Positions 3,922 through 58,164 of a stretch of DNA of 64,000 nucleotides are shown here, piece after piece. Position 1 is the stretch's first letter; every line of letters starts with the position of its first letter. Source of the stretch: Candidatus Woesearchaeota archaeon. Lineage in GTDB: Archaea > Nanobdellota > Nanobdellia > Pacearchaeales > GW2011-AR1. The stretch is from assembly GCA_964545065.1 (NCBI GenBank), contig CAZJEO010000002.1, positions 132,879-196,878 of the forward strand, written 5' to 3'. The translations under genes were made by a program, and so were the position numbers. The notes beneath the pieces were generated by a model, which was not told the DNA's origin, ran no database searches, and saw nothing but the letters and a program-made list of their open reading frames with translations.

Positions 3922-5070
3922 ATGGAGGGAGAAAATAAAGAACTGGAAACTTTAAAAAAAGAGAATGAGAAACTTACTGAGGAATTAAAAAGATTTCAAA
4001 ACCAAGGCAATAACAAGAAAAAGAATAACTATTATTCCCACTATAAAGCTGCGCACCACACAGAAAGGATAGCGCAATTGAAAAAAGGGGGGGTAATCTA
4101 CCCAGTATTTGTGCAAATTGATTTAATCAATGCCTGTAATATTGATTGCAGTTTTTGTTCGTATAAGTTAGGAAATTATTCCTCAGATCAGATAAAAGAT
4201 TTTGATCGTGGAGACAAATTAAATAAAAATATTGTCTTTAGGATATTAAGAGAAATGAAGAAAGCAGGGGTAAAAGCAGTAGAGTGGAGCGGAGGGGGGG
4301 AGCCAACTCTTCATCCAGATTGGAAAGATATTGTCAAAGTAGCAAAAGAGTTGGGATATGAACAAGCACTTGTGACTAATGGGACACTCTTGGACGATGA
4401 AGGAATTGATTTAATAAAAGATTTTGAATGGGTTCGATTTTCTATTGATGCTTCGACAGAGGAAACATACAATCAAGTAAAAAGAAAACCAGAATTAAAG
4501 TTGGCCTTGGAAAATCTTAAAAGGTTAGTTGAAATAAAAAATCCTGAAAATATTGTTGGAGTCAGTTTTGTTGTGTGTAAAGAAAATTATCATGAAATTC
4601 ATGAGGCGGCAAGGTTAGCAAAAACTCTTGGCGCAGACAATATCAGATTCTCTCTTGCTTATACTCCCCAGGGAAAAGAAATGTTTGATGGGATATGGGA
4701 TAACACAATAGAACAAATAGAAAAAGCAAAACAAGAAAAAACAGAAGATTTTAAAGTTTTTGCGTTTCCGAATAGGATTGATGAAATATCGCAAAAGACA
4801 AAAAGTGATGCTTGTTATTTTCATGAATTTGTTGCAACTATTGGTGCTAATGGGGCTGTTTACCCTTGTTGTTTATTAAAATACAATCCCAAGTTTAATT
4901 TTGGAAATTTAAATGATAACTCATTTGAGGACATATGGTTTGGAGACAAAAGAAAAGAATTTGTAGGCCAAATTAGAAGAGGTTGTAATTACAGTTGCTG
5001 GATGACTGATAAAAATAATTTTATAAGTTACTTTTTAGAAAGAAACCCATCACATGTGAATTTTATTTAA
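3922..5070 (+). CDS. Radical SAM protein with a Cys-rich C-terminal (SPASM/twitch-like) region and an N-terminal coiled coil
   Basis: CNIDCSFCSY (CxxxCxxC) and the GGGEPT SAM-binding motif. The C-terminus has CYFHEF...YPCCLL...CNYSC. Confidence 0.8.
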   Translation: MEGENKELETLKKENEKLTEELKRFQNQGNNKKKNNYYSHYKAAHHTERIAQLKKGGVIYPVFVQIDLINACNIDCSFCSYKLGNYSSDQIKDFDRGDKLNKNIVFRILREMKKAGVKAVEWSGGGEPTLHPDWKDIVKVAKELGYEQALVTNGTLLDDEGIDLIKDFEWVRFSIDASTEETYNQVKRKPELKLALENLKRLVEIKNPENIVGVSFVVCKENYHEIHEAARLAKTLGADNIRFSLAYTPQGKEMFDGIWDNTIEQIEKAKQEKTEDFKVFAFPNRIDEISQKTKSDACYFHEFVATIGANGAVYPCCLLKYNPKFNFGNLNDNSFEDIWFGDKRKEFVGQIRRGCNYSCWMTDKNNFISYFLERNPSHVNFI

Positions 5071-5071
5071 G

Positions 5072-6397
5072 ATGGAACTAACTGACATGAAAAAATCAAT
5101 TCCAAAAATAGTAATAATTGGAGCAGGGCTAACTGGTTTGAGCTTAGCATATTTCCTTGAGGAAGAAAATAAAAAAGATTACATCTTGCTCGAAGGTTCT
5201 TCTGAAATCGGGGGATTATGTAAAAGTATTAGGAAAAATGGATTTGTATTTGATTTAGCTCCCCACTTGTTGCACCTAAAAAATCCAGAAATTATAGAAT
5301 TAGTGAAAAAGCTATTAGGGGATGAACTAACACTAAATACCCGAAAAGCGGGAATAGTTTTTGGTGGTAAAATTATTCCGTACCCTTTTCAGTATAATCT
5401 TTACCATTTAGATGAAGAGATAAAAAAAGAATGCTTGGATGGTGCTATTGAAGCAAATAAAAAATTTAGTGAAGAAAAAGAATCTGATAATTTTGGGGAG
5501 TGGATAAAAATGACTTTTGGAGAGGGTATTGCAAAATACTTCATGACTCCATATAATAAAAAATATTATTGTGTTGATCCTAATGAACTAACCATGGATT
5601 TTTTTAAAAAATATATCCCTAAGACACGTTTTGAAGAAATAAGGCAAGGAGCAATATCTGACATGTCTGATTCTAAGGCTGGATACTTTCATGAGTTTTA
5701 TTACATAAAAAGCGGGGGAATTGATTATCTGCCAAAAGCTATGGCTAAGGGAGTTCAAAACATTAGACTAGATGAAAAGGTGATTCGGATTGATTTGGAT
5801 AAGAAAATAGTATTCACAGAAAACTCAGAGTATAATTATACTAATTTGGTTTCCACGATTCCTATTAATAAACTTATTCAATTGATGGGTAGAGTTCCGG
5901 ATGAAATTAAAATTGCACGTGAAAAATTAAGATGCAATAGCATAAGTCTTGTCTTTTTGGGAATTAATCGGCCCAAGATCTCTGACCATCATTGGTTATA
6001 CTTGCCTCAAGAAGATATTTTGCCTTTTAGAATAACTTTTCACAAAAATCTTTCAGAAAATATGGTCCCTACAAATATGAGTTCAATTTGTGCAGAGTAT
6101 TCTTATCTTGGTGATAAAAAATTTACAGATGATGAAATAATTGAAAAAACAATTGATGACTTAATTAAAATTGGTGTTATTAAAAACAAAGAAGAAATAA
6201 TTTTTAAAGACTCTATTGATTTGCCTTATGCTTATCCTATCTTTGATTTAAATAGAAAAGAAAATTTAAAATTGATAAAAGATTATTTAGATAAACATGA
6301 GATAATATCTATTGGACGATTTGGAACATGGGAGTATTCTCCTATGGAAGACGGAATTATCCAGAGCAAGCATGCTGTCTCTAGATTAATCTCATAA
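5072..6397 (+). CDS. FAD/NAD(P)-dependent oxidoreductase, UDP-galactopyranose-mutase-like
   Basis: N-terminal dinucleotide fold IVIIGAGLTGLSLAYFLEE. The C-terminal GRFGTWEYSPMEDGI resembles the UGM/amine-oxidase family C-terminus. Confidence 0.6.
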   Translation: MELTDMKKSIPKIVIIGAGLTGLSLAYFLEEENKKDYILLEGSSEIGGLCKSIRKNGFVFDLAPHLLHLKNPEIIELVKKLLGDELTLNTRKAGIVFGGKIIPYPFQYNLYHLDEEIKKECLDGAIEANKKFSEEKESDNFGEWIKMTFGEGIAKYFMTPYNKKYYCVDPNELTMDFFKKYIPKTRFEEIRQGAISDMSDSKAGYFHEFYYIKSGGIDYLPKAMAKGVQNIRLDEKVIRIDLDKKIVFTENSEYNYTNLVSTIPINKLIQLMGRVPDEIKIAREKLRCNSISLVFLGINRPKISDHHWLYLPQEDILPFRITFHKNLSENMVPTNMSSICAEYSYLGDKKFTDDEIIEKTIDDLIKIGVIKNKEEIIFKDSIDLPYAYPIFDLNRKENLKLIKDYLDKHEIISIGRFGTWEYSPMEDGIIQSKHAVSRLIS

Positions 6398-6486: not shown

Positions 6487-7293
6487 ATGATATATTTGAC
6501 AGGGGATGTCCATGTAAAAATCCCTCCAGGGAATTGGGAGCAAAAAAACATTGAGTCAGAAGTTGCCGCTTCAGAAAAATACCTCAAAATATTAGCAAAA
6601 TATAATATTTCTTGCACACTTTTCATTAATGGTATCTGCTTTAATAAAAACAAAGAAGGGATCAAGCAATTATTGGAATATGATGTGGAACTTGGGGGGC
6701 ATACTTATAATAATTTCGGTGGGATGGATATAGTTAGAAGTTATATCACTAGAAAACTTTTTGGTAATATCTATGGACCTTCTTTTTACCAAAAGAGGGA
6801 CATTAGAAAAACAAAAGAGGCCTTTGAAAAGTTTGGATTAAAGATGACCTCTTGGAGAACGCATGCATTTGGTTCGAATAATGAAACATTTAGATTATTG
6901 AAAAAGGAGGGGGTGATGTACGTCTCTGATTTGATTGGAGATCAAGGATGTTTTGCAGATAAAAATGGGCTTATCCATTTACCCCTTAATATTTCTATAG
7001 ACCAGAACACAATTGCTTATGGTATTCTTAAACCTGAAAATAGGGACCCTTTTTCTTCAAGTTGCACGAAGGGAAGAATAAAACCAGAAGAATGGTTTGA
7101 AATTATAAAAAAAAGAATAGATGAAAATGAGAGAGAAAAAATTCCGAGCATAATTTTAATTCATCCAGCAACAATGGCTTTTTTGGATGATTTTCAATTA
7201 TTCGAAAAAGTTGCTAAATTTCTATCAAAATATGAATCTAAGAAAGTTTCTGAATTTGAATACAATGAAAAAATCAAATCTTATAAAGAATGA
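6487..7293 (+). CDS. Putative polysaccharide deacetylase-like hydrolase
   Basis: Weak CE4-like pattern (LTGDVH, GGHTYNN, ILIHPATM) in a glycan locus. Its first 9 and last 30 codons recur as a deletion derivative at 9685-9804. Confidence 0.4.
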   Translation: MIYLTGDVHVKIPPGNWEQKNIESEVAASEKYLKILAKYNISCTLFINGICFNKNKEGIKQLLEYDVELGGHTYNNFGGMDIVRSYITRKLFGNIYGPSFYQKRDIRKTKEAFEKFGLKMTSWRTHAFGSNNETFRLLKKEGVMYVSDLIGDQGCFADKNGLIHLPLNISIDQNTIAYGILKPENRDPFSSSCTKGRIKPEEWFEIIKKRIDENEREKIPSIILIHPATMAFLDDFQLFEKVAKFLSKYESKKVSEFEYNEKIKSYKE

Positions 7294-8655
7294 GAATATT
7301 TCAGTAAAAACCATGGATGATAAACAAAAGAGAAGAATCTTATTTATCTATCCTGCAAATGACGGTGAATCATTGGGGATAGAGTATCTTTCTGGGAGTC
7401 TTAGAAAAAGGGGGCATAAAACAGATTTAATCCTCTTTAGAGAAATTGAGGGGTTTGAAAGGGAATTAAAACAAAATATAAAAAGTTTTGACCCGGATTT
7501 TGTGTGCCTTTCTGTTGTTACAGACAATTATTCTTGGGCATGCAAGATATCAAGAATTATTAAAAAAGTAAAGGAAATTCCAATAGTTTTTGGAGGAATT
7601 CAAGTAACCTCCTGTCCTGAAGAAGTTATAAGTAATGATTTTGTAGATTACGCAGTCCTTGGAGAAGGGGAAGAAGCGATAGTCGAATTGGTTGAAAATC
7701 CTAAAAATCCAAACATAAAAAATGTCTGGTTTAAGAAAAATGGTAAAATAATTAAAAACAACTTAAGATCCTTAGTTCAAAATCTAGATTTATTGTCTTT
7801 CCCAGATAAAGAACTTTTTTATAAAAAAACTCCTCACCTTAAGAATAATTATTGGTGCATAACTAGTAGGGGATGTCCTTTTGGGTGTAGTTATTGCTTT
7901 AATCACTATCTCAGAAAATTGTATGAGGGACAGAGATGGTTAAGGAGAAGGAGCGTTGAGAATGTTATTGAAGAGTTAAAGATAATGAAAGAGAAAGGGG
8001 GCTGTAAAAATGTGCTTTTTTTTGATGATTGTTTTACCTCTGATAAAGAATGGTTAAGAAAATTCATTAAAGAATATAAAAAAGAAATCAATCTTCCTTT
8101 TGAATCTATCTCTATTCCGATTTTTATTGATAAAGAAGTTGCTTCTCTTTTAAAAGAAGGAGGGTGTATAAAAGTCCAAATGGGTGTTCAGACGCCTATT
8201 GAAAGAATAAGAAAAGAAATATGCAAGAGAGGAGATACTAATGAAGATATTGAAATAGCAGTTAATGAACTTAAAAAACAAAAGATAGCGGTCTCATTAG
8301 ATCACATATTTTCGTTGCCTTCTGAAAAAATAGAAGACTATGATGAGGGGTTAAAATTCTATATAAAACTTAAACCAACAATATTCAAAATCTTTAAGTT
8401 GGGTTATTACCCCAATACAGAAATAATGAAGATAGGTAAAGAATATAAAACAATAGATGAAGAAACTGAAAAGAAAATCATTGGGGGGGATTTTTCGTCG
8501 GGAATTATGCTGCATCGCAAAGAGGGAGAAAAGAAATTTGAAGAAATTTTTAAATTTATCCAATGGATTCCAATTTTTCCGAGAGGGTTTAGTAGATTTC
8601 TTCTTAGAACAAGGTTATATCGCAAAATTCCAAAAAATAAGTATATTACTAAAAT
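7204..8655 (+). repeat. Left copy of a 1452 nt apparently identical direct repeat (partner 9715-11166)
   Basis: Constant offset of 2511 nt. The forward ORF and three independent reverse/alternate-frame ORFs translate identically in both copies. The first mismatch I found is at 8656/11167. Confidence 0.85.
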
Positions 8656-50724: not shown

Positions 50725-50949
50725 AAGAAATTTAGAAGAAAGAAATTTATAAAGTTTTCTGTGAACCTAAATAGGTTTTGAGATGATATTATGATGATGT
50801 GATCTTTGAATTGTGCATCTATATGTTGTTTGAATGATTGGTCCCACCCCTTAGTTTCGTCTGGAAAGATTTAAAAAGAAATTTTGAATTTTTTATTTTT
50901 TTATTTTATTTAAAAAAATTTATATTATATAGTATATATATTATATAGA

Positions 50950-50976
50950 TAGTAGTAGTAGTAGTAGTAGTAGTAG
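50950..50976. repeat. (TAG)9 trinucleotide microsatellite inside the origin AT-rich region
   Basis: Nine perfect tag units, preceded by a duplicated tattatatag motif and followed by a C-string, caccctcccc. Confidence 0.95.
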
Positions 50977-51044
50977 ATCACCCTCCCCTGATAATTTTTT
51001 TTATTTTAATTATTAATTTTATTTTTTTGAAAGAGCGTAGAAAT

Positions 51045-51199
51045 TGTTTTCCATATAAAAAATTAGTTTCATATAGAAAAACTATTTTCCACTAGAAATA
51101 AAGGCGTTCTTCTTTTTTAGTAGTCATAATCTTTTATATACATAAATCATTTCTTACCGATAGAAAAAATGAAATCAATAATTTTTTCCATAGGAAATA
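51045..51199 (+). repeat. Array of five direct ORB-like boxes
   Basis: ttttccatataaaaaa / gtttcatatagaaaaa / ttttccactagaaata / tttcttaccgatagaaaaaa / ttttccataggaaata. Confidence 0.75.
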
Positions 51200-51244
51200 G
51201 GAGTGTGACATTAGAGTGGTTGAAATAAATATAGAGGTGGTGAA

Positions 51245-52474
51245 ATGGTAGTTGAAGTTGATACAGGGAAAGAGCTTGATGAGATTTTTGATTCATTTGA
51301 TAAGAATATTATTTTTAAAAACAAGTCGTTGTTGCAAAATAGTTATCAGCCAGAGAGTATTCCTCATAGAAGTGAAGAGATTAAACAGATTGGTTCTATT
51401 CTTGCGCCTGCCTTGAGAGGAGAGAGAACGAGTAATCTTTTTCTTTATGGTAAGACTGGAACTGGTAAGACCTTATCTGTGCAGTATGTTCGAGATGAAT
51501 TATTAAAAAGATTAGAGAAAGATAAAGGTTTTAATTTAAGAATTGAATATCTTAATTGTAAATTGAAAAAAGTTTCGGATACAGAATATAGGATTTTGGC
51601 TGAGATTATTAAGAAACTTGGAGGAGAGGTGCCTCCAACTGGTTTACCTACTCAAGCAGTATATAATAAATTCATTGATATTATTGATTCTGAGAAGCAA
51701 CTTATTATTTTAATTTTAGATGAAATTGATCAGACTGTGATGAAGATTTCTAATGATTTTTTGTATAATTTGACTAGACTTAATGCAGAACTTTCTCAAT
51801 CGCAGATTTCTATTGTAGGAATTAGTAATAATCTTACTTTTTTAGATGAACTTGATCCGAGGGTGAGGAGTTCGCTGTCTGAAGAGGAAATTGTTTTTCC
51901 GCCGTATAATGCGCTGCAATTGCAGGATATTTTGAGTAGGAGGGCAAAGGGAGCGTTTAGAGAAGGTGTTGTTGAGGATGGTGTGGTTGCAAAGTGTGCT
52001 GCTTATGCTGCTCGAGAACATGGGGATGCTAGGAGGGCGTTGGATTTGTTGAGAATTGCAGGTGAGTTAGCTGAGAGAGATAGTTCAAAGGAGATTAAGT
52101 TAAAACATCTTGATAGTGCGAATGATAAGATTGAGAGGGACAAGATTTTAGATGTTATTCGGTCAGAGCCAAAGCAGTTTCAACTTGTGTTGAGTTCTAT
52201 TATTAGTTTGGCAGAGAAAGGCAATTCAAAGTCTTTTTTTACAGGAGATGTTTATCTTTCGTATCAAGATTTGTGTATTCAGAATAAACTAGAAGTTTTG
52301 ACGCAGAGGAGAGTTAGCGATATAATTCAAGAATTTGATATGTTAGGAATTATTAATGTGAAGGTTATTTCAAAGGGGAGGGGAGGAAGAATGAGAGAGA
52401 TAAAGTTGGCAATTTCAAATGATATAATCAAGAAAGCAAAAGAGATAATTGAAAGTTCGTTGAATTATAGTTAA
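51245..52474 (+). CDS. orc1: Orc1/Cdc6 replication initiator
   Basis: Walker A GKTGTGKT, Walker B LILDEID, sensor regions and a C-terminal winged helix (LTQRRVSDIIQEFDMLGII). Confidence 0.9.
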   Translation: MVVEVDTGKELDEIFDSFDKNIIFKNKSLLQNSYQPESIPHRSEEIKQIGSILAPALRGERTSNLFLYGKTGTGKTLSVQYVRDELLKRLEKDKGFNLRIEYLNCKLKKVSDTEYRILAEIIKKLGGEVPPTGLPTQAVYNKFIDIIDSEKQLIILILDEIDQTVMKISNDFLYNLTRLNAELSQSQISIVGISNNLTFLDELDPRVRSSLSEEEIVFPPYNALQLQDILSRRAKGAFREGVVEDGVVAKCAAYAAREHGDARRALDLLRIAGELAERDSSKEIKLKHLDSANDKIERDKILDVIRSEPKQFQLVLSSIISLAEKGNSKSFFTGDVYLSYQDLCIQNKLEVLTQRRVSDIIQEFDMLGIINVKVISKGRGGRMREIKLAISNDIIKKAKEIIESSLNYS

Positions 52475-52476
52475 TC

Positions 52477-54042
52477 ATGGAATCAAAAGAAATTTTAGAA
52501 TTTTGTATACAGAAAGGTCTTTTAGTAGATAAAGAGATTTTGAATTTATTTAGTGAGACTCAAGATTTTGAATCTGTAAAATTAATTATAGAGAAGATTA
52601 AAACTCATACTCAAGAGAGGATTATTACGAGGAATTTATTTGATAAGAATAAGGAGCATGTGTCGCGGGTTTTTTCTGCGCTGCCAGAGGAGAATCAGAG
52701 ACAGCTTGAGAAATTGAAGATTAAACTTGGATTGAGTATTGAGATTTCAAAAGAAATTGAAAGACCGGTGAATGAGGAGATTGTACAATTAGAGAAAGAA
52801 GGGGTTAATGGAGTGAAGATTCATTCTGTTGTTGCTTATCCTATGAAAAAATTAGAGACTAAGGATTTTGTTGGTTTTTTTAGGAATCGGTTTGATAGTA
52901 TGAGGAATATTTTGCAAGAGCATCCAAAGCTTGTGAATTTGGTTTCAATAAATAAGATTGCAGGAAGTAGGCAAGGGATATCAATTATAGGAATTATTTC
53001 TGATAAAAGGATGACGAAGAATGGAAATATTCTTCTTGAGGTTGAGGATTTGACTGGAAAGATTAGGGTTTTGATAAATCAGAACAAGCCTGATTTATTT
53101 AAGGAAGGTGAGGAGATAAGTCTTGATTCTGTTTTGGGATTTATTGGTTCAGGGAATGGTGAGATCTTTTTTGTGAATGATCTTGTGTTTCCTGATGCGC
53201 GGATTTTAGAGAGGAAAAAATCTCCTGTTGAAGAGTATGCTTTGTTTATTGGAGATATTCATTATGGGAGCAAGCTTTTTTTGGAAGAGGGTTTTTTGAA
53301 GTTTATTGATTATCTTAATGGAAAGGTTCTGAATACTCCAGAGGTTGAGAAGATAAAATATCTTTTTATTGTTGGAGATATGGTTGCAGGGGTAGGGAAT
53401 TATCCGAATCAAGAAAAGGATTTGGAAATTAAGGACATTGAAGAGCAATTTATTGGATTTGCTGAGATGTTGAGCAGGATTCGGAAAGATATTCAGATAA
53501 TTATTTCGCCAGGGAATCATGATGGTGTTCGGTTGATGGAGCCACAGCCATTGATCGGGGAAAAGCATGCATGGGCACTTTATGATTTAGACAATGTGGT
53601 TTTTACTGGGAATCCTGCTTCTGTTAATTTAGGAGCGAAGGGCGGTTTTTCTGGTTTTGATGTTTTGACTTATCATGGGTTTTCGTTTCCTTATTATACA
53701 AATACTGTTCCAAGTTTGATTAGAGACAATGCAATGAATGCTCCTGATAAGATCATGGGTTATTTGCTGAAGAATAGGCATCTGGCGCCGTCACATACAT
53801 CGACTCAGTATTTTCCTCATGAAGAAGATGCTTTGATAGTTAGGAATGTTCCTGATATTTTTGTTTCAGGACATACACACAAGAGTGCTGTTTCATATTA
53901 TAATAATGTTTTGATGATTTCGATTTCATCATGGGAGGGGAAGACAGATTATATGGAGAAGATGGGAAGTGAGCCAGACCACTGTAAGGTGCCGATGTTT
54001 AATCTTAAGACAAGGGAGGTGAAAATTCTTGACTTCGAATAA
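52477..54042 (+). CDS. polB: DNA polymerase II (PolD) small subunit DP1
   Basis: OB-fold region plus calcineurin-like phosphoesterase motifs (FIGDIHYGS, VGDMVAGVG, PGNHD, GHTH). Confidence 0.9.
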   Translation: MESKEILEFCIQKGLLVDKEILNLFSETQDFESVKLIIEKIKTHTQERIITRNLFDKNKEHVSRVFSALPEENQRQLEKLKIKLGLSIEISKEIERPVNEEIVQLEKEGVNGVKIHSVVAYPMKKLETKDFVGFFRNRFDSMRNILQEHPKLVNLVSINKIAGSRQGISIIGIISDKRMTKNGNILLEVEDLTGKIRVLINQNKPDLFKEGEEISLDSVLGFIGSGNGEIFFVNDLVFPDARILERKKSPVEEYALFIGDIHYGSKLFLEEGFLKFIDYLNGKVLNTPEVEKIKYLFIVGDMVAGVGNYPNQEKDLEIKDIEEQFIGFAEMLSRIRKDIQIIISPGNHDGVRLMEPQPLIGEKHAWALYDLDNVVFTGNPASVNLGAKGGFSGFDVLTYHGFSFPYYTNTVPSLIRDNAMNAPDKIMGYLLKNRHLAPSHTSTQYFPHEEDALIVRNVPDIFVSGHTHKSAVSYYNNVLMISISSWEGKTDYMEKMGSEPDHCKVPMFNLKTREVKILDFE

Positions 54043-54076
54043 TTTTCATCTCTTCGTTAAAATAAATAAATTTTAC

Positions 54077-54106
54077 CGGGAGGTTAAGATTTTGGATTTT
54101 GAGTAG
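54077..54106 (+). pseudogene. Fossil second copy of the DP1 C-terminus (10 codons including the stop)
   Basis: cgg gag gtt aag att ttg gat ttt gag tag encodes REVKILDFE*. That is the same peptide as the real DP1 end (agg gag gtg aaa att ctt gac ttc gaa taa), and it differs only by synonymous changes. Confidence 0.7.
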
Positions 54107-54107
54107 G

Positions 54108-54674
54108 ATGGAAGGTATAATTGAAGAAGTTAGGAAATTTGTAGAAGAAGAATGTAAAAAACCTAGCGCTAAATATAGGCTTATTTATGAAGGGCATTTT
54201 GTTCCAATGCATGAGCGTGCTGTTGAATTAGCAAAAAAATTAGGCGCAGATTTGGAGACTGTTGAATTAGCTGCATGGTTTCATGACCTTGGTTCTGTAC
54301 TTGATGGAAGAGAAAATCATCATATTATAGGAGCAGAAATAGCTGAAAAAAAATTAAAAGAATTAGGTTATCCTAAAGAAAAAATAGAGCAGGTTAAACA
54401 TTGTATTCTTAATCATAGAGGTTCTGTTGGTATGAATGGAGAGACTGTTGAATCACAGATTATTATTGAGGCAGATACATTAAGTGGTTTTGATAATGTT
54501 GGGGGGATATTTGAGGCTGCTATCCTTCATGAAGATTTACATCAACAAGATGCAGCAAAATCTGTTTTAAATAAATTGAAGAATAAATATAATCAATTAT
54601 CTACAGAATCCCGCGAATTAATTAAAAAAAAATATGAGGCAGCATTAGTGTTGTTCGGAGAAGATGGAAACTGA
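54108..54674 (+). CDS. HD-domain phosphohydrolase
   Basis: HxxxxxxxxxxxHD pattern (HERAVELAKK...AAWFHDLG), with later HH and D residues. Lies between the DP1 and DP2 genes. Confidence 0.75.
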   Translation: MEGIIEEVRKFVEEECKKPSAKYRLIYEGHFVPMHERAVELAKKLGADLETVELAAWFHDLGSVLDGRENHHIIGAEIAEKKLKELGYPKEKIEQVKHCILNHRGSVGMNGETVESQIIIEADTLSGFDNVGGIFEAAILHEDLHQQDAAKSVLNKLKNKYNQLSTESRELIKKKYEAALVLFGEDGN

Positions 54675-57600
54675 AAAATACTTCAAAGATCTTGAAAGAG
54701 ATGTTAGGAAAGTTTATGCTGTTGCAGAAGCTGCGAGGGCGAAAGGAATTGACCCGAAGAAAAAGGTTGAGATTCCGTTGGCAATGAGTATGGCTGAGAA
54801 AGTTGTTGAGTTGATTGCTACAGTTTATCCTCAAATGAGTGGTTGTGGAATTGATAAGAGAATTCTTGAATTAGAAAAAGAGTATGGGAAGCTTGATTCC
54901 ACAATTGTTTTTAAGATTGCAGAGGAGGTAGCAAAGCAGAAATTTTGTAAGTTTGCTAGTTTGCTTGAGGCAATTGATGCAGGAATTAGAATTGGGTTGG
55001 CATATGTGACAATAGGGGTTGTTTCAAGTCCAATCGAAGGATTCACTCAATTGAAGTTAGGGAAGACGAGAGATGGGAAAGATTATTTTATTGCATATTT
55101 CTCAGGGCCTATAAGAAGTTCAGGAACAACTGCAAATTGTATGACTTTGATGTTGATTGATTATCTTAGAGAATTGTTTGGTTATGCTAAATATGATCCG
55201 ACTGAAGAAGAGGTTAAGAGATTTGTGGCAGAGATTACTGATTTTCACGAGAGGGTTACGAATCTTCAGTATATGCCTACTGAAAAAGAGATGGTTTTTC
55301 TTGCTGAGAATATGCCGATTCAGGTTGCGGGCGATCCTTCTGAGAAGTTAGAGGTTTCTAATTATAAGAATTTGCCTAGAGTGGATACTAATTTTTTGAG
55401 GAGTGGTTTTTGCTTGGTTCTTGCAGAAGGATTGGCTCAAAAAGCTGCGAAGGGTCTAATGTTATTGAACAATGCCAAGGAAAAAGGAATTAATGCAACT
55501 GGATTTGATTTTTTAGAAGATTATCTTGAATTGCATGAAAAAGAAACAAGTGTTGCTTCAGAAGGAGAAGAGAAAGATACAAGACCAACTTATATCAGAG
55601 ATCTTCTTGCAGGGAGACCTGTGTTTTCACACCCCTCTATGTCTGGAGGTTTTAGATTTAGATATGGTAGAGGGAGGGTTAGTGGATTTAGTGCTGTTTC
55701 TTTGCATCCTGCGACAATGGCGATTACAGATAATTTTATTGCTACTGGGACGCAGTTGAAAATAGAGAAGCCTACAAAAGGTTGTGTTACGACTGTTTGC
55801 GATTCAATTGACGGACCGATTGTGAAATTATTTAATGGAAGTGTAAAAAAAGTTGAGAGTATGGAAGAGGCTAAGAAGCTTTATCCTGATGTAGAGGAGA
55901 TAATTTATCTTGGAGATATTTTGTTTCCGTTTAGTGATGTTAGAAATAGATATGCTGATTTAATAAATCCAGGTTATGTTGAAGAATGGTGGAAGTTGGA
56001 ATTAGAGGAGAAAGGTGGGACTGTTGAAGATTGTTTTAATGTTTCTTTTGATGAAGCGATTGAGTTTAGTAAGAAGTTTGGAGTTGGGTTTTATCCGAAA
56101 TATATTTTTTACTGGACGCAGATTGCTGAAAGTGGTTTTCTTGAGTTGATTAAATGGTTGAGAGGTGCGTTTGTTGCTGATAAAAAGATTGTTTTTCCGT
56201 ATCAAAAAGATATTCAGGAGAAGTTTGCTCAAGGGAAGAGGGCGTTGGAGCTTTTGGGTGTTGAGCATGCTGTGAGTATTGAGAATGTTGTTATTGATGC
56301 AAAGGAATCTAGAGCATTGCTTGCTAATCTTGGAATTGACTTGAGAGTTTTGGAGAAAGGAGGAGCGATTAGAGAATTTGTTCAGGAGAAGAGATATAAA
56401 CTGGCACCCAAGGGTGTACCCCCAGAAGGGGGCAAGGGTGAGGAGATTTTGCATAAGATTAATTCTGTTTCTAATTTTGTAATTAAGGATAAGGCAGGGG
56501 AATTTATCGGCGCGAGGATGGGAAGACCTGAGAAAGCTAAGCTTAGAAAACTTGTTGGTAGCCCGAATATTCTTTTTCCTGTTGGGAAAGAGGGAGGAAG
56601 ATTGAGGAGTTTTCAGGCAGCGTGTGAGGTGGGAAATGTTTGGAGTTCTTTTCCTGTTTATTATTGTGAAGAGTGTAAGAAGGAGACAATTTATCCTCAT
56701 TGTGAGGACTGTGGGAAAGAGTGTGAGAAGAGGTTTTATTGTAGAGAGTGTGAGGAAGTTAGTAAGACAAAGTGTCAGCAGCATGAGAGGAGTGTTCCAT
56801 ATTATGCGAGGAAGATTGATATTAATCATTATTATCAGAAGGCTGTTGAGAAATTAGGATTAGCAAGACAGAATTTGCCTGCGTTGATTAAAGGTATTAG
56901 GGGAACTTCGTCAGAGAATCATCAGATAGAGAATCTTACTAAGGGAGTTTTGAGGGCGCTTCATGGTTTGCAAGTTAATAAGGATGGGACGATTAGGTTT
57001 GATTGCACTGAATTACCCTTGGTTAGTTTTAAGCCTAAGGAAGTTTCTGTTAGTGTTGAGAAGTTGAAGGAATTGGGTTATGATAAAGATGTTTATGGGA
57101 AAGAGCTTGTTAGTGATGAACAGATTTTGAATTTGATGCCCCATGATGTAATTCTTCCGAATTCGCCTGAGTCGCTTGATGAGAAAGCTGATGATGTTTT
57201 TGTTAAGCTTTGTAATTTTGTTGATGAGCTTTTGGTTAAAGTTTATGGGTTGAAGCCATTTTACAAAGTTAAGAGTAGAGATGATTTGGTTGGCAAGTTA
57301 GGAGTTTGTATGGCGCCACATAATTGTGCAGGAGTTATTTGCAGGTTTATTGGTTTTTCAAATAGTTTGGGATTATTTGCTTCGCCTTATATGCACGCAG
57401 CGATAAGAAGAGATTGTGATGGGGATGAAGCAGCGATTATGCTTTTGGGAGATGTGCTTATTAATTTTTCCCGGGAATTTCTTCCGAGTCATCGAGGGGG
57501 AACACAGGATGCTCCGTTGGTTTTGAATGCGAAGATTGATGCAGGGGAAGTTGATGATCAGATTTTGGATTTTGAGTTTTCTTATGGGTATCCGTTGAAA

Positions 57601-58164
57601 CTTTATCAATTGGCAGAGCAGAGAAAGCATTCTTCTGAGGTTGGGATTAGGAATGTGAAAGAAGTATTGGCAGAGGGAGGGGACCCTTTTGTTGGTTTGG
57701 GTTTTACTCATGATACAACTGATTTTAATAAAGGAGTTGTTTGTTCTTCGTATAAATTACTTCCGACAATGCAGGAGAAAGTTCAGCACCAGATGGAACT
57801 TGTTGAGAAGATTAGGGCGGTGGACACTTCTGATGTTGCGAGGTTGATTATTGAGCGGCATTTTATTCGGGATTTGAAAGGTAATCTTAGGAAGTTTTCA
57901 ATGCAGGGTTTTAGGTGTGTGGCTTGTAATGAAATTATGAGGAGACCGCCGTTAAAAGGAATTTGTCATAAATGTGGTGGAAAGATAATTTTTACAATTA
58001 ATGAAGGAGGGATTAAGAAATATCTTGAACCAGCAATTGATTTGGCGAATAAGTATGAACTTTCTGCTTATCTTAAACAGAATTTAGGATTGATAAAAGA
58101 TAATATTGATAGTATTTTTGGGAAGGAGCTTGAGAGACAGGAGAAGTTGGGGGGATGGATGTGA
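54664..58164 (+). CDS. polC: DNA polymerase II (PolD) large catalytic subunit DP2
   Basis: 1166 aa with conserved DP2 blocks (e.g. GFRFRYGRGRVSGF, GRPEKAK, MAPHNCAGV..., RRDCDGDEA, C-terminal Zn motifs CVACN...CHKCGG). No intein-sized insertion. Confidence 0.95.
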   Translation: METEKYFKDLERDVRKVYAVAEAARAKGIDPKKKVEIPLAMSMAEKVVELIATVYPQMSGCGIDKRILELEKEYGKLDSTIVFKIAEEVAKQKFCKFASLLEAIDAGIRIGLAYVTIGVVSSPIEGFTQLKLGKTRDGKDYFIAYFSGPIRSSGTTANCMTLMLIDYLRELFGYAKYDPTEEEVKRFVAEITDFHERVTNLQYMPTEKEMVFLAENMPIQVAGDPSEKLEVSNYKNLPRVDTNFLRSGFCLVLAEGLAQKAAKGLMLLNNAKEKGINATGFDFLEDYLELHEKETSVASEGEEKDTRPTYIRDLLAGRPVFSHPSMSGGFRFRYGRGRVSGFSAVSLHPATMAITDNFIATGTQLKIEKPTKGCVTTVCDSIDGPIVKLFNGSVKKVESMEEAKKLYPDVEEIIYLGDILFPFSDVRNRYADLINPGYVEEWWKLELEEKGGTVEDCFNVSFDEAIEFSKKFGVGFYPKYIFYWTQIAESGFLELIKWLRGAFVADKKIVFPYQKDIQEKFAQGKRALELLGVEHAVSIENVVIDAKESRALLANLGIDLRVLEKGGAIREFVQEKRYKLAPKGVPPEGGKGEEILHKINSVSNFVIKDKAGEFIGARMGRPEKAKLRKLVGSPNILFPVGKEGGRLRSFQAACEVGNVWSSFPVYYCEECKKETIYPHCEDCGKECEKRFYCRECEEVSKTKCQQHERSVPYYARKIDINHYYQKAVEKLGLARQNLPALIKGIRGTSSENHQIENLTKGVLRALHGLQVNKDGTIRFDCTELPLVSFKPKEVSVSVEKLKELGYDKDVYGKELVSDEQILNLMPHDVILPNSPESLDEKADDVFVKLCNFVDELLVKVYGLKPFYKVKSRDDLVGKLGVCMAPHNCAGVICRFIGFSNSLGLFASPYMHAAIRRDCDGDEAAIMLLGDVLINFSREFLPSHRGGTQDAPLVLNAKIDAGEVDDQILDFEFSYGYPLKLYQLAEQRKHSSEVGIRNVKEVLAEGGDPFVGLGFTHDTTDFNKGVVCSSYKLLPTMQEKVQHQMELVEKIRAVDTSDVARLIIERHFIRDLKGNLRKFSMQGFRCVACNEIMRRPPLKGICHKCGGKIIFTINEGGIKKYLEPAIDLANKYELSAYLKQNLGLIKDNIDSIFGKELERQEKLGGWM

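Follow-up and report, generated by a model that had tools for sequence, protein, structure and literature searches.

The 64,000-nt stretch of an archaeal contig analyzed here (hereafter, the window) carries on its plus strand the genes for both subunits of DNA polymerase PolD in the local order orc1 - DP1 - HD - DP2, and the subject of this study is a short cassette at the 3' end of DP1. According to the list of open reading frames (ORFs) and the translation, the coding sequence of the small subunit DP1 (521 amino acids; 52477 to 54042) ends with aca agg gag gtg aaa att ctt gac ttc gaa taa, the tail occupying positions 54013 to 54039 and the stop codon 54040 to 54042. A second copy of this end, tac cgg gag gtt aag att ttg gat ttt gag tag, is located at 54074 to 54106 and followed by a single G (54107) and the ATG (54108) of an HD-domain gene (54108 to 54674; Pfam HD, 2.6e-12), downstream of which the ORF list places the large subunit DP2 (54664 to 58164). 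The two tails, which we designate T1 (54013 to 54042, stop codon TAA) and T2 (54077 to 54106, stop codon TAG), were recovered in a repeat search as a 28-nt direct repeat with a spacing of 64 nt. They differ at nine bases in eight codons, but all differences are silent, and both copies encode REVKILDFE plus stop; T2 lies in the +1 frame relative to DP1. The sequence-only reading that drew attention to the locus had correctly described the nine residues encoded twice, the eight silently differing codons and the position of the T2 stop 1 nt before the HD start, but its distance of 35 nt between the copies has to be corrected to 31 nt (from the DP1 stop to tac) or 34 nt (to cgg).

Nine random substitutions preserved the peptide and its stop in none of 200,000 simulations (P<5e-6), and the re-encoded tail scored 42 versus a shuffled-control maximum of 31 among 791 ORF ends from related loci (designated by L numbers). 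Only the re-encoded tails of DP1 and DP2 exceeded this maximum; the sole exception, in L015 (5800 to 5960, minus strand), is an identical 40-nt tandem repeat in which the gene end FVVVSEEDFI plus stop is present three times, unlike the diverged PolD tails. A false "second tail" is exemplified by L019 (3690 to 3900), where an identical duplicated gene end on either side of a run of Ns represents a scaffolding artifact. For the DP1 tails, an assembly artifact can be ruled out because the two copies differ and the same architecture recurs in independent TARA, ENA, Logan, JGI and NCBI assemblies. Tandem duplication in situ was rejected as well, as only the 28 to 30 nt of the tail are repeated, and the spacer, judged by eye, has no similarity to the 34 nt in front of T1 or to the HD start behind T2.

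The codon usage of the two copies is indicative of their origin. The typical tail DNA of about 46 loci without a duplication is gtt aaa att ttg gat ttt gaa, matching T2, which is composed of codons ordinary for the clade. T1, the tail now in use, contains the codons gtg, ctt, gac and ttc, which are unusual for the clade; gac is present in 8/8 carriers of the duplication and among the approximately 46 noncarrier loci only in L056 and L057. In L003, L017 and L056, an orthologous HD gene directly follows DP1, and the DP1 stop abuts or overlaps its start (TGAgATG, TAATG and TAAaATG, respectively). Because of these clade-typical codons and the equivalent junction with the HD gene, T2 is the displaced ancestral end of DP1, which evolved as coding sequence and is now noncoding. 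The proposal that the second tail was a former DP1 end, tightly coupled to the HD gene, is thus borne out by the three related junctions, and the HD gene was formerly coupled to DP1 at the level of translation.

The cassette that separates the former end from the gene body comprises 64 nt (54013 to 54076) and consists of T1, its stop codon, a hairpin arm and a second hairpin. The first hairpin, HP1 (54014 to 54054), is an inverted repeat whose 5' arm (54014 to 54027) is part of T1 and whose 3' arm (54041 to 54054) extends from the stop codon; its energy is -14.3 kcal/mol (z -3.07). Folding of the 55 nt around the stop yielded -10.4 to -19.2 kcal/mol for the carriers and a mean of -3.1 kcal/mol (sd 2.5, minimum -9.9) for 46 noncarrier DP1 ends, and the stop-spanning hairpin is specific to carriers. 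The second hairpin, HP2 (54055 to 54078), is an inverted repeat formed by CGTTAAAAT and ATTTTACCG with the loop AAATAA, and its stem architecture is common to the cassette types A to D, among which T-A pairs are exchanged for C-G pairs and the apical inserts vary. All D-type copies (4/4) are predicted to form a closing stem that contains two 1x1 internal loops, again with apical inserts that vary. The termini of the D core, CATTCGTCCAAG and CGTGGCCAAATG, are complementary at 9/12 positions and the stems of types A to C measure 8 to 9 bp, while the energies are mostly no better than those of shuffled sequences. The empty site reads AAAACA directly followed by AGGGAGGTTAAAATTTTGGATTTTGAA, with the insertion point between the two. 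The longest run shared by T1 and T2 is GGGAGGT (7 nt) in the window, GAGGT in L053 and GTGAA in L046.

The corresponding position is occupied by homologous units in seven further loci, i.e., L004, L046 to L048, L053, L055 and L060. In L004, a species-representative genome, the DP1 end RAVKILDFE TAA is followed by a 78-nt spacer and the second tail atg agg gca gtg aaa att ttg gat ttt gaa taa. Three loci (L046 to L048), each of them with a second tail, were retrieved from metagenomes with a pattern of tail, TAA and TTTTCAYC, and L053/L054, L055 and L060 were added through the genomic context of the nearest protein matches. The order is the same in 8/8 distinct DP1 loci: T1 (GTG AAA ATH CTN GAC TTY GAR plus stop), an arm complementary to T1 (GGTGAAAAT/ATTTTCACC), the second hairpin and T2. 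In each of them (8/8), spacer and T2 join at the Arg codon to within 3 nt, the offsets between T1 and T2 are 64, 65, 67, 111 and 156 nt, and the 31 to 143 nt between the two tails contain no ORF of any size. The nearest relative of each carrier is a noncarrier (91% identity between the window and L001, 81% between L053 and L049/L050, 85% between L055 and L056, 88% between L060 and L005). The DP1 homologues numbered 1,520 (with PF04042/PF00149), and those with a named source belong to Pacearchaeota, Woesearchaeota or Nanoarchaeota. The sequence-only reading, which had assumed a scar of gene replacement, named a duplicated tail common to all related genomes as the observation that would refute it; in part this is what we found, namely, in the seven other DP1 loci, although many relatives are devoid of the tail. 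Since these seven share a homologous duplicated tail and a conserved hairpin, the structure is a recurrent cassette rather than a single scar.

Cassettes and hosts are incongruent. The cassettes of the window and L053 are identical at 62/64 positions, with an additional 3-nt indel in the HP2 loop, whereas their host DP1 genes share 78% of the amino acids and a third-position identity of only 0.57; the divergence of the adjoining 45 nt upstream is about 31%, and the two T2 copies are distinguished by 6/30 bases, all of them silent (P~1.5e-5). A comparable case is the pair L004 and L060, whose spacers are 97% identical except for a 65-nt internal deletion in L004. The DP1 of L060 is 87 to 88% identical to that of the noncarrier L005 and 77 to 78% identical to that of L004, and its T2 resembles the native tail of L005. 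In the comparison of L046 with L004 and L047, the last 60 to 80 codons plus T1 are 0.90 to 0.98 identical and the gene body is 0.72 to 0.85 identical; for L046 and L004 alone, the values are 0.90 to 0.96 for these codons and 0.72 for the gene body. Repeated acquisition at one precise site is indicated because the T2 copies diverged as coding sequences in their own lineages while T1 and the spacer are shared. There are also traces of loss: the tail of L001 corresponds to the T1 of the window at positions 1 to 18 and to T2 at positions 19 to 30, with one mismatch, and has kept the TAGgATGGAA junction, and L056 possesses a T1-type tail with no spacer. To judge from their sequences, both tails look like products of recombination between T1 and T2, i.e., of a deletion. 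Other T2 copies have decayed in place; the Arg codon has changed to tga, tgg or gga in L046 to L048, and further damage comprises a 2-nt insertion in L055, a 9-nt deletion in L047 and a Val-to-Met exchange in L060. This damage in several carriers speaks for T2 being a fossil rather than a sequence that is still decoded.

The gene of the large subunit is affected as well. Displaced C-terminal tails of DP2 were detected by the tail scan in L005 (13807 to 13918), L006 (6618 to 6730) and L032 (13612 to 13695) and by inspection in L017 (15219 to 15370); in the DP2 of the window, the tail survey revealed none. The DP2 spacers of L005 and L017 share the termini ATTCATTCGTCCAAG ... CGTGGCCAAATG with the D-type DP1 spacers of L004 and L060, and the bases directly after the new DP2 stop are complementary to the new tail (AAGAGGC/GCCTCTT in L005 and AAAAACC/GGTTTTT in L017). 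To the right of the junction, AAAGCAGGAAAA at DP2 (L005 and L017) resembles AGGGCAGTGAAAA at DP1. The T2 of the L006 DP2 is identical to the native tail of L007 and L010. Two further observations concern individual DP2 genes: in L005, the sequence gta gag tgg ttt tga at a distance of 6 nt behind T2 may be a fragment of a third tail, and in L032, no spacer separates the second tail from the first stop.

The explanation that we consider best, to which we would give an even chance of being correct, is a small ORF-less cassette that spreads horizontally and site specifically and replaces the tail of its target gene. T2 is the original DP1 end, once coupled to the HD gene, and the 64-nt cassette would have been inserted exactly in front of it. 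DP1 remains intact because the cassette brings along the recoded last nine codons and a new stop, which it sets within the strong hairpin HP1 while adding HP2. In Pacearchaeota-like DPANN archaea, both PolD genes are probably targets of this cassette family through their conserved 3' ends, and the unit would move between lineages with a fixed insertion point and be lost through recombination between both tails. As to the mechanism of insertion, we infer, and favor, that a site-specific break between the Thr and Arg codons is repaired in a homing-like manner with a filled allele as the template; a recombinase acting in trans would be the alternative. Repair of the broken empty allele would leave the T1 and spacer of the donor, the T2 of the recipient and sharp edges, with occasional co-conversion upstream. 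The element itself may be selfish or nearly neutral, with the hairpins as its structural ends. A more far-reaching proposal, which we put forward tentatively and consider doubtful as a whole, is that the cassettes of DPANN archaea represent a new class of miniature "tail-replacement" elements devoid of ORFs, which home into the last 9 to 12 codons of replication genes that are essential and highly conserved (DP1 and DP2 of PolD), spare the host by a recoded C terminus and a stop within a hairpin rather than by splicing or bypassing, and are mobilized in trans by a site-specific nuclease or recombinase.

Several observations weigh against a mobile cassette. No nuclease, integrase, transposase or recombinase was found in or beside any of the cassettes (eight DP1 and four DP2 instances), and the ORFs beside the DP1 and DP2 ends lack nuclease domains. 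The 64-kb window contains no second copy of the spacer, viral contigs contain no relative of the spacer, T1 or DP1, and a fixed short target-site duplication was not seen. Covariation within the HP1 of DP1 is weak, with nine invariant pairs and a single compensatory one (att/TAA to atc/TGA), and no signal emerged from a formal test, as the 9-bp core does not vary. The cassette types A to D broadly follow the host clades, so that much of the inheritance may be vertical. In addition, the sample is small and was partly ascertained by a pattern requiring the arm, and the specificity for PolD genes holds within the PolD neighborhoods that the survey covered. Dispersed copies were likewise absent, the element being restricted to PolD gene ends in about 60 loci, and a virus or plasmid was discarded as the donor on the basis of the viral contigs mentioned above. 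For core-L, these contigs gave 61 matches, approximately the number estimated by chance, and none with core-R nearby. The contig P0006 (JGI 3300072015), whose DP1-DP2 gap of 60 nt has the size of a cassette, harbors the gene of a 143-aa HNH_3 endonuclease with a start overlapping the last 35 nt of DP2, and it may serve as a lead for a long form of the cassette.

The main rival of a mobile cassette is a cis-regulatory 3'-end module under selection, whose hairpins would terminate or stabilize the transcript of DP1 or relieve the coupling of DP1 to the next gene. Such a module would have spread by ordinary homologous recombination because it is useful, possibly with an archaeal promoter in the AT-rich loop of HP2, and T2 would be a by-product. 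We regard this as unlikely, even if the strong carrier-specific hairpin over the stop, the stop-spanning hairpins of different sequence at the DP2 genes of L005, L006 and L017, the restriction of changes between the window and L053 to a loop indel and one compensatory exchange (att/TAA to atc/TGA), and the tracking of host clades by the cassette types speak for it. The cassette is dispensable because it is missing in most relatives, including the closest one, L001, and L004 lost 65 nt of its D-type spacer without consequence. Moreover, boundaries that are sharp within 3 nt on both sides are not explained by ordinary recombination, and neither a U-run terminator signature nor an Rfam match was detected: Rfam 15 gave nothing near the gathering score in the window (53800 to 54300) or in L060 (4500 to 4850), and a scan for hairpins with U-runs, which does not cover archaeal termination signals, yielded zero sites and only T4 runs at 53700 to 54400. 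Ranked next, and already improbable, is the remnant of an integrative element of the integrase type, e.g., a plasmid or virus, that used the 3' end of DP1 as its attachment site and whose body was deleted until attL and attR became nearly adjacent. The absence of an integrase or any other ORF from the eight DP1 and four DP2 instances, the inability of 64 bp to circularize and the failure to find a viral contig bearing DP1 or the cassette all speak against it, and the near-identical short forms in diverged hosts (window/L053 and L004/L060) imply that the short form itself would have to move. Its appeal lies in the layout, as an element-borne 3' end that restores the gene, a native end downstream and silent differences are known from such integrations (PMC13626634), in a spacer of variable length with shared ends, as internal deletions would produce, and in a D-type core that, by eye only, is richer in G+C than its host.

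The replacement scenario of the sequence-only reading, in which the present DP1, perhaps together with orc1 and the origin, was swapped in by a single allelic or xenologous event with its right crossover about 30 nt inside the old gene, is very improbable in light of the relatives, although it recognized T2 as a true former gene end. The closest locus is L001 for DP1 (91% identity to the window), HD (74%) and DP2 (85 to 87%) and for the upstream genes alike, so that DP1, HD and DP2 are congruent. The nucleotide identity of DP1 to L001 is 0.73 to 0.95 per window of the profile and 0.88 to 0.92 over the last 100 codons; the profile is flat, the GC content does not change stepwise at 54043, and only about 64 nt are foreign. 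Nor does a single event account for the recurrence of the cassette at this position in the other seven loci or for its presence at DP2. Recombination does take place in the region, as orc1 (51245 to 52474; annotated by translation and located outside the cassette) is a mosaic in comparison with L001 (3150 to 4361) and L049 (4741 to 5970): over codons 1 to 200 the window is nearer to L049 (0.83 to 0.92 nucleotide identity) than to L001 (0.75 to 0.85), over codons 200 to 410 it is nearer to L001, and the 5' half of L001 is an outlier to all others. This pattern indicates recombination among lineages within orc1, not a swap tied to T2. Hardly credible at all is the idea that T2 is still decoded, either by bypassing from T1 to T2 in the manner of gene 60 or by a +1 frameshift, such that translation ends beside the HD start, coupling is restored and T2 is under selection at the protein level; the predicted peptide would be LTSNNFHLFVKINKFY. 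It draws on T2 copies that differ only silently between hosts, a hairpin at the would-be take-off site, the precedent of the bypass gap of T4, which likewise belongs to a mobile cassette (bioRxiv 10.1101/2022.08.31.505936), and the +1 frame that is open from within T1 to the T2 stop in the window (54023 to 54106; KFLTSNNFHLFVKINKFYREVKILDFE plus stop, with a TTG at 54029) and in L053 (~1885 to 1971). But the open +1 frame is limited to these two loci and not conserved in other cassette types, being closed or unlinked in L046 to L048, L004 and L055, and a +1 frameshift was discarded for this reason. HP1 is present, whereas offsets and frames between T1 and T2 are inconsistent among loci, and the matched codons that bypassing requires follow trivially from the direct repeat. 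Nor does the insert interrupt an ORF, the hallmark of a bypass element: T1 plus stop already completes a full-length DP1 with a tail identical to that of its homologues, and T2 is damaged in several carriers.

Further candidates were discarded on structural grounds. An archaeal bulge-helix-bulge (BHB) intron does not fit the junctions AGGGAGG and CGGGAGG, whose predicted folds, on inspection only, lack the BHB motif of two 3-nt bulges flanking a 4-bp helix; the pairing is impossible because both junctions belong to the same-sense, purine-rich repeat. A diversity-generating retroelement (DGR) would confine changes to adenines, and the differences between T1 and T2 (c/a, t/g, g/a, t/c, g/t, etc.) occur in both directions. 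C/D-box small RNAs, ribozymes and tRNA fragments were rejected by inspection, Rfam and ARAGORN, the last of which reported no tRNAs in the six carrier loci scanned, a set outside of which the window lies. An antisense small ORF in the D-type spacer is uninformative because the two copies are 97% identical.

With respect to the wider locus, a putative replication origin is located upstream of orc1 at 50840 to 51200 of the window, with repeats that resemble origin recognition boxes (AGTTTCGTCTGGAAA at 50851 to 50867 and AGTTTCATATAGAAA at 51063 to 51079) and an AT-rich stretch between them. Inverted TTTCCA..GAAA copies lie near 51048, 51088 and 51186, and about ten TAG trinucleotides (tagtagtag...) at ~50946 to 50977 are followed by atcaccctcccct. 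A relationship between the cassette hairpin and these boxes was dismissed, as the TTTCCA.T.GAAA-type repeats do not resemble the hairpin. The gene 3' of DP1 differs widely among relatives and is either DP2 itself, the HD gene, a HAD-like hydrolase (MKIKAIISDMDG...), a 5'-nucleotidase-like protein (MKIGIDIDD...) or a 320-aa protein, and across all DP1 loci it frequently overlaps the DP1 stop or starts at most 2 nt from it. Because of this variation, the DP1-DP2 junction appears to be a hotspot of gene insertion. In L001, an extra 254-aa ORF with a weak AGOG match (4392 to 5156) lies between orc1 and DP1, and DP1 and HD are separated by a HIT-like ORF of 202 aa plus a second HD gene (6699 to 7909); the HIT-like ORF begins at a TAGgATGGAA junction, the same as that between T2 and HD in the window.

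Parts of the proposed mobile cassette have counterparts in known systems. The e14 prophage and phage 21 carry the 3' end of icd into Escherichia coli, leaving the native end behind as the icdC pseudogene; icd and icdC differ mostly at silent sites, and excision creates a chimeric tail (PMC13626634). Likewise, the cassette-borne 3' end keeps DP1 intact and T2 is displaced as an imperfect direct repeat of 28 to 30 nt, but e14 is a 15-kb prophage with an integrase, whereas the cassette measures 64 nt (up to 175 nt in relatives), is free of ORFs and possesses a stop-spanning hairpin; neither an integrase nor an attachment core was identified for it, and a recombinase gene and a kilobase-sized body between the repeats are absent from the eight DP1 loci. 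In fungal mitochondria, partial C-terminal duplications of atp6 and cob are found beside free-standing homing endonuclease genes, intact or degenerate (PMC6279837). The shared features are a partial C-terminal copy just downstream of an intact gene, mobile-element DNA between the two and a patchy distribution, and the DP1 cassette further resembles homing cassettes in its fixed site within highly conserved sequence and in co-conversion-like tracts, with raised identity over the last 60 to 80 codons upstream in L004, L046 and L047. Unlike in the fungal cases, where an endonuclease ORF or its remnant lies between the copies, none was seen in the DP1 cassettes. The coding gap of phage T4 gene 60, a hairpin-bearing stretch of about 50 to 60 nt, has spread as mobile DNA (bioRxiv 10.1101/2022.08.31.505936). 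Both are short hairpin inserts in an essential replication-related gene that are rendered harmless by a built-in trick, which is ribosomal bypassing in T4 and a duplicate tail with a stop in the cassette, so that the latter needs no recoding.

Sequential displacement of 3' modules is a feature of the orphan tips of contact-dependent growth inhibition (CDI) and Rhs systems, and the effector/immunity arrays of type VI secretion systems (T6SS) reportedly gain a new end via upstream homology while the old end is pushed downstream, sometimes repeatedly. The DP2 of L005, which may hold three successive tails, is reminiscent of this process, but T6SS, CDI and Rhs exchanges change the protein by adding a new toxin, whereas T1 and T2 of DP1 encode the identical peptide. 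Miniature inverted-repeat transposable elements (MITEs) and repetitive extragenic palindromic (REP) elements are similarly small and ORF-less with imperfect inverted termini and a variable interior; the cassette differs from them by the lack of a short fixed target-site duplication and of dispersed copies and by its constant association with a gene-specific replacement tail and arm. Membership among integrase elements, homing endonuclease elements, MITEs, bypass elements, BHB introns and DGRs therefore fails in each case on at least one defining feature. The cassette differs from the e14/phage 21, fungal and T4 systems in its size of 64 to 175 nt, the absence of an ORF, the location of its stop within a hairpin formed by the replacement tail and the targeting of both PolD genes of DPANN archaea.

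In genome annotation, short duplicated gene ends that differ only silently should be interpreted as footprints of such cassettes and not as proof of the replacement of a whole gene. The cassette also marks a hotspot of recombination between lineages beside the replication origin. If its hairpins are regulatory, the case illustrates how a portable 3'-end module can break up a replication operon whose genes are tightly coupled. A cassette that is mobile would represent a third route by which selfish DNA persists in essential genes, beside splicing (introns and inteins) and ribosomal bypassing (T4 gene 60), namely, by bringing along a silent replacement for the few codons that it displaces, and it would be the first example of this route in DPANN archaea and in the PolD operon.

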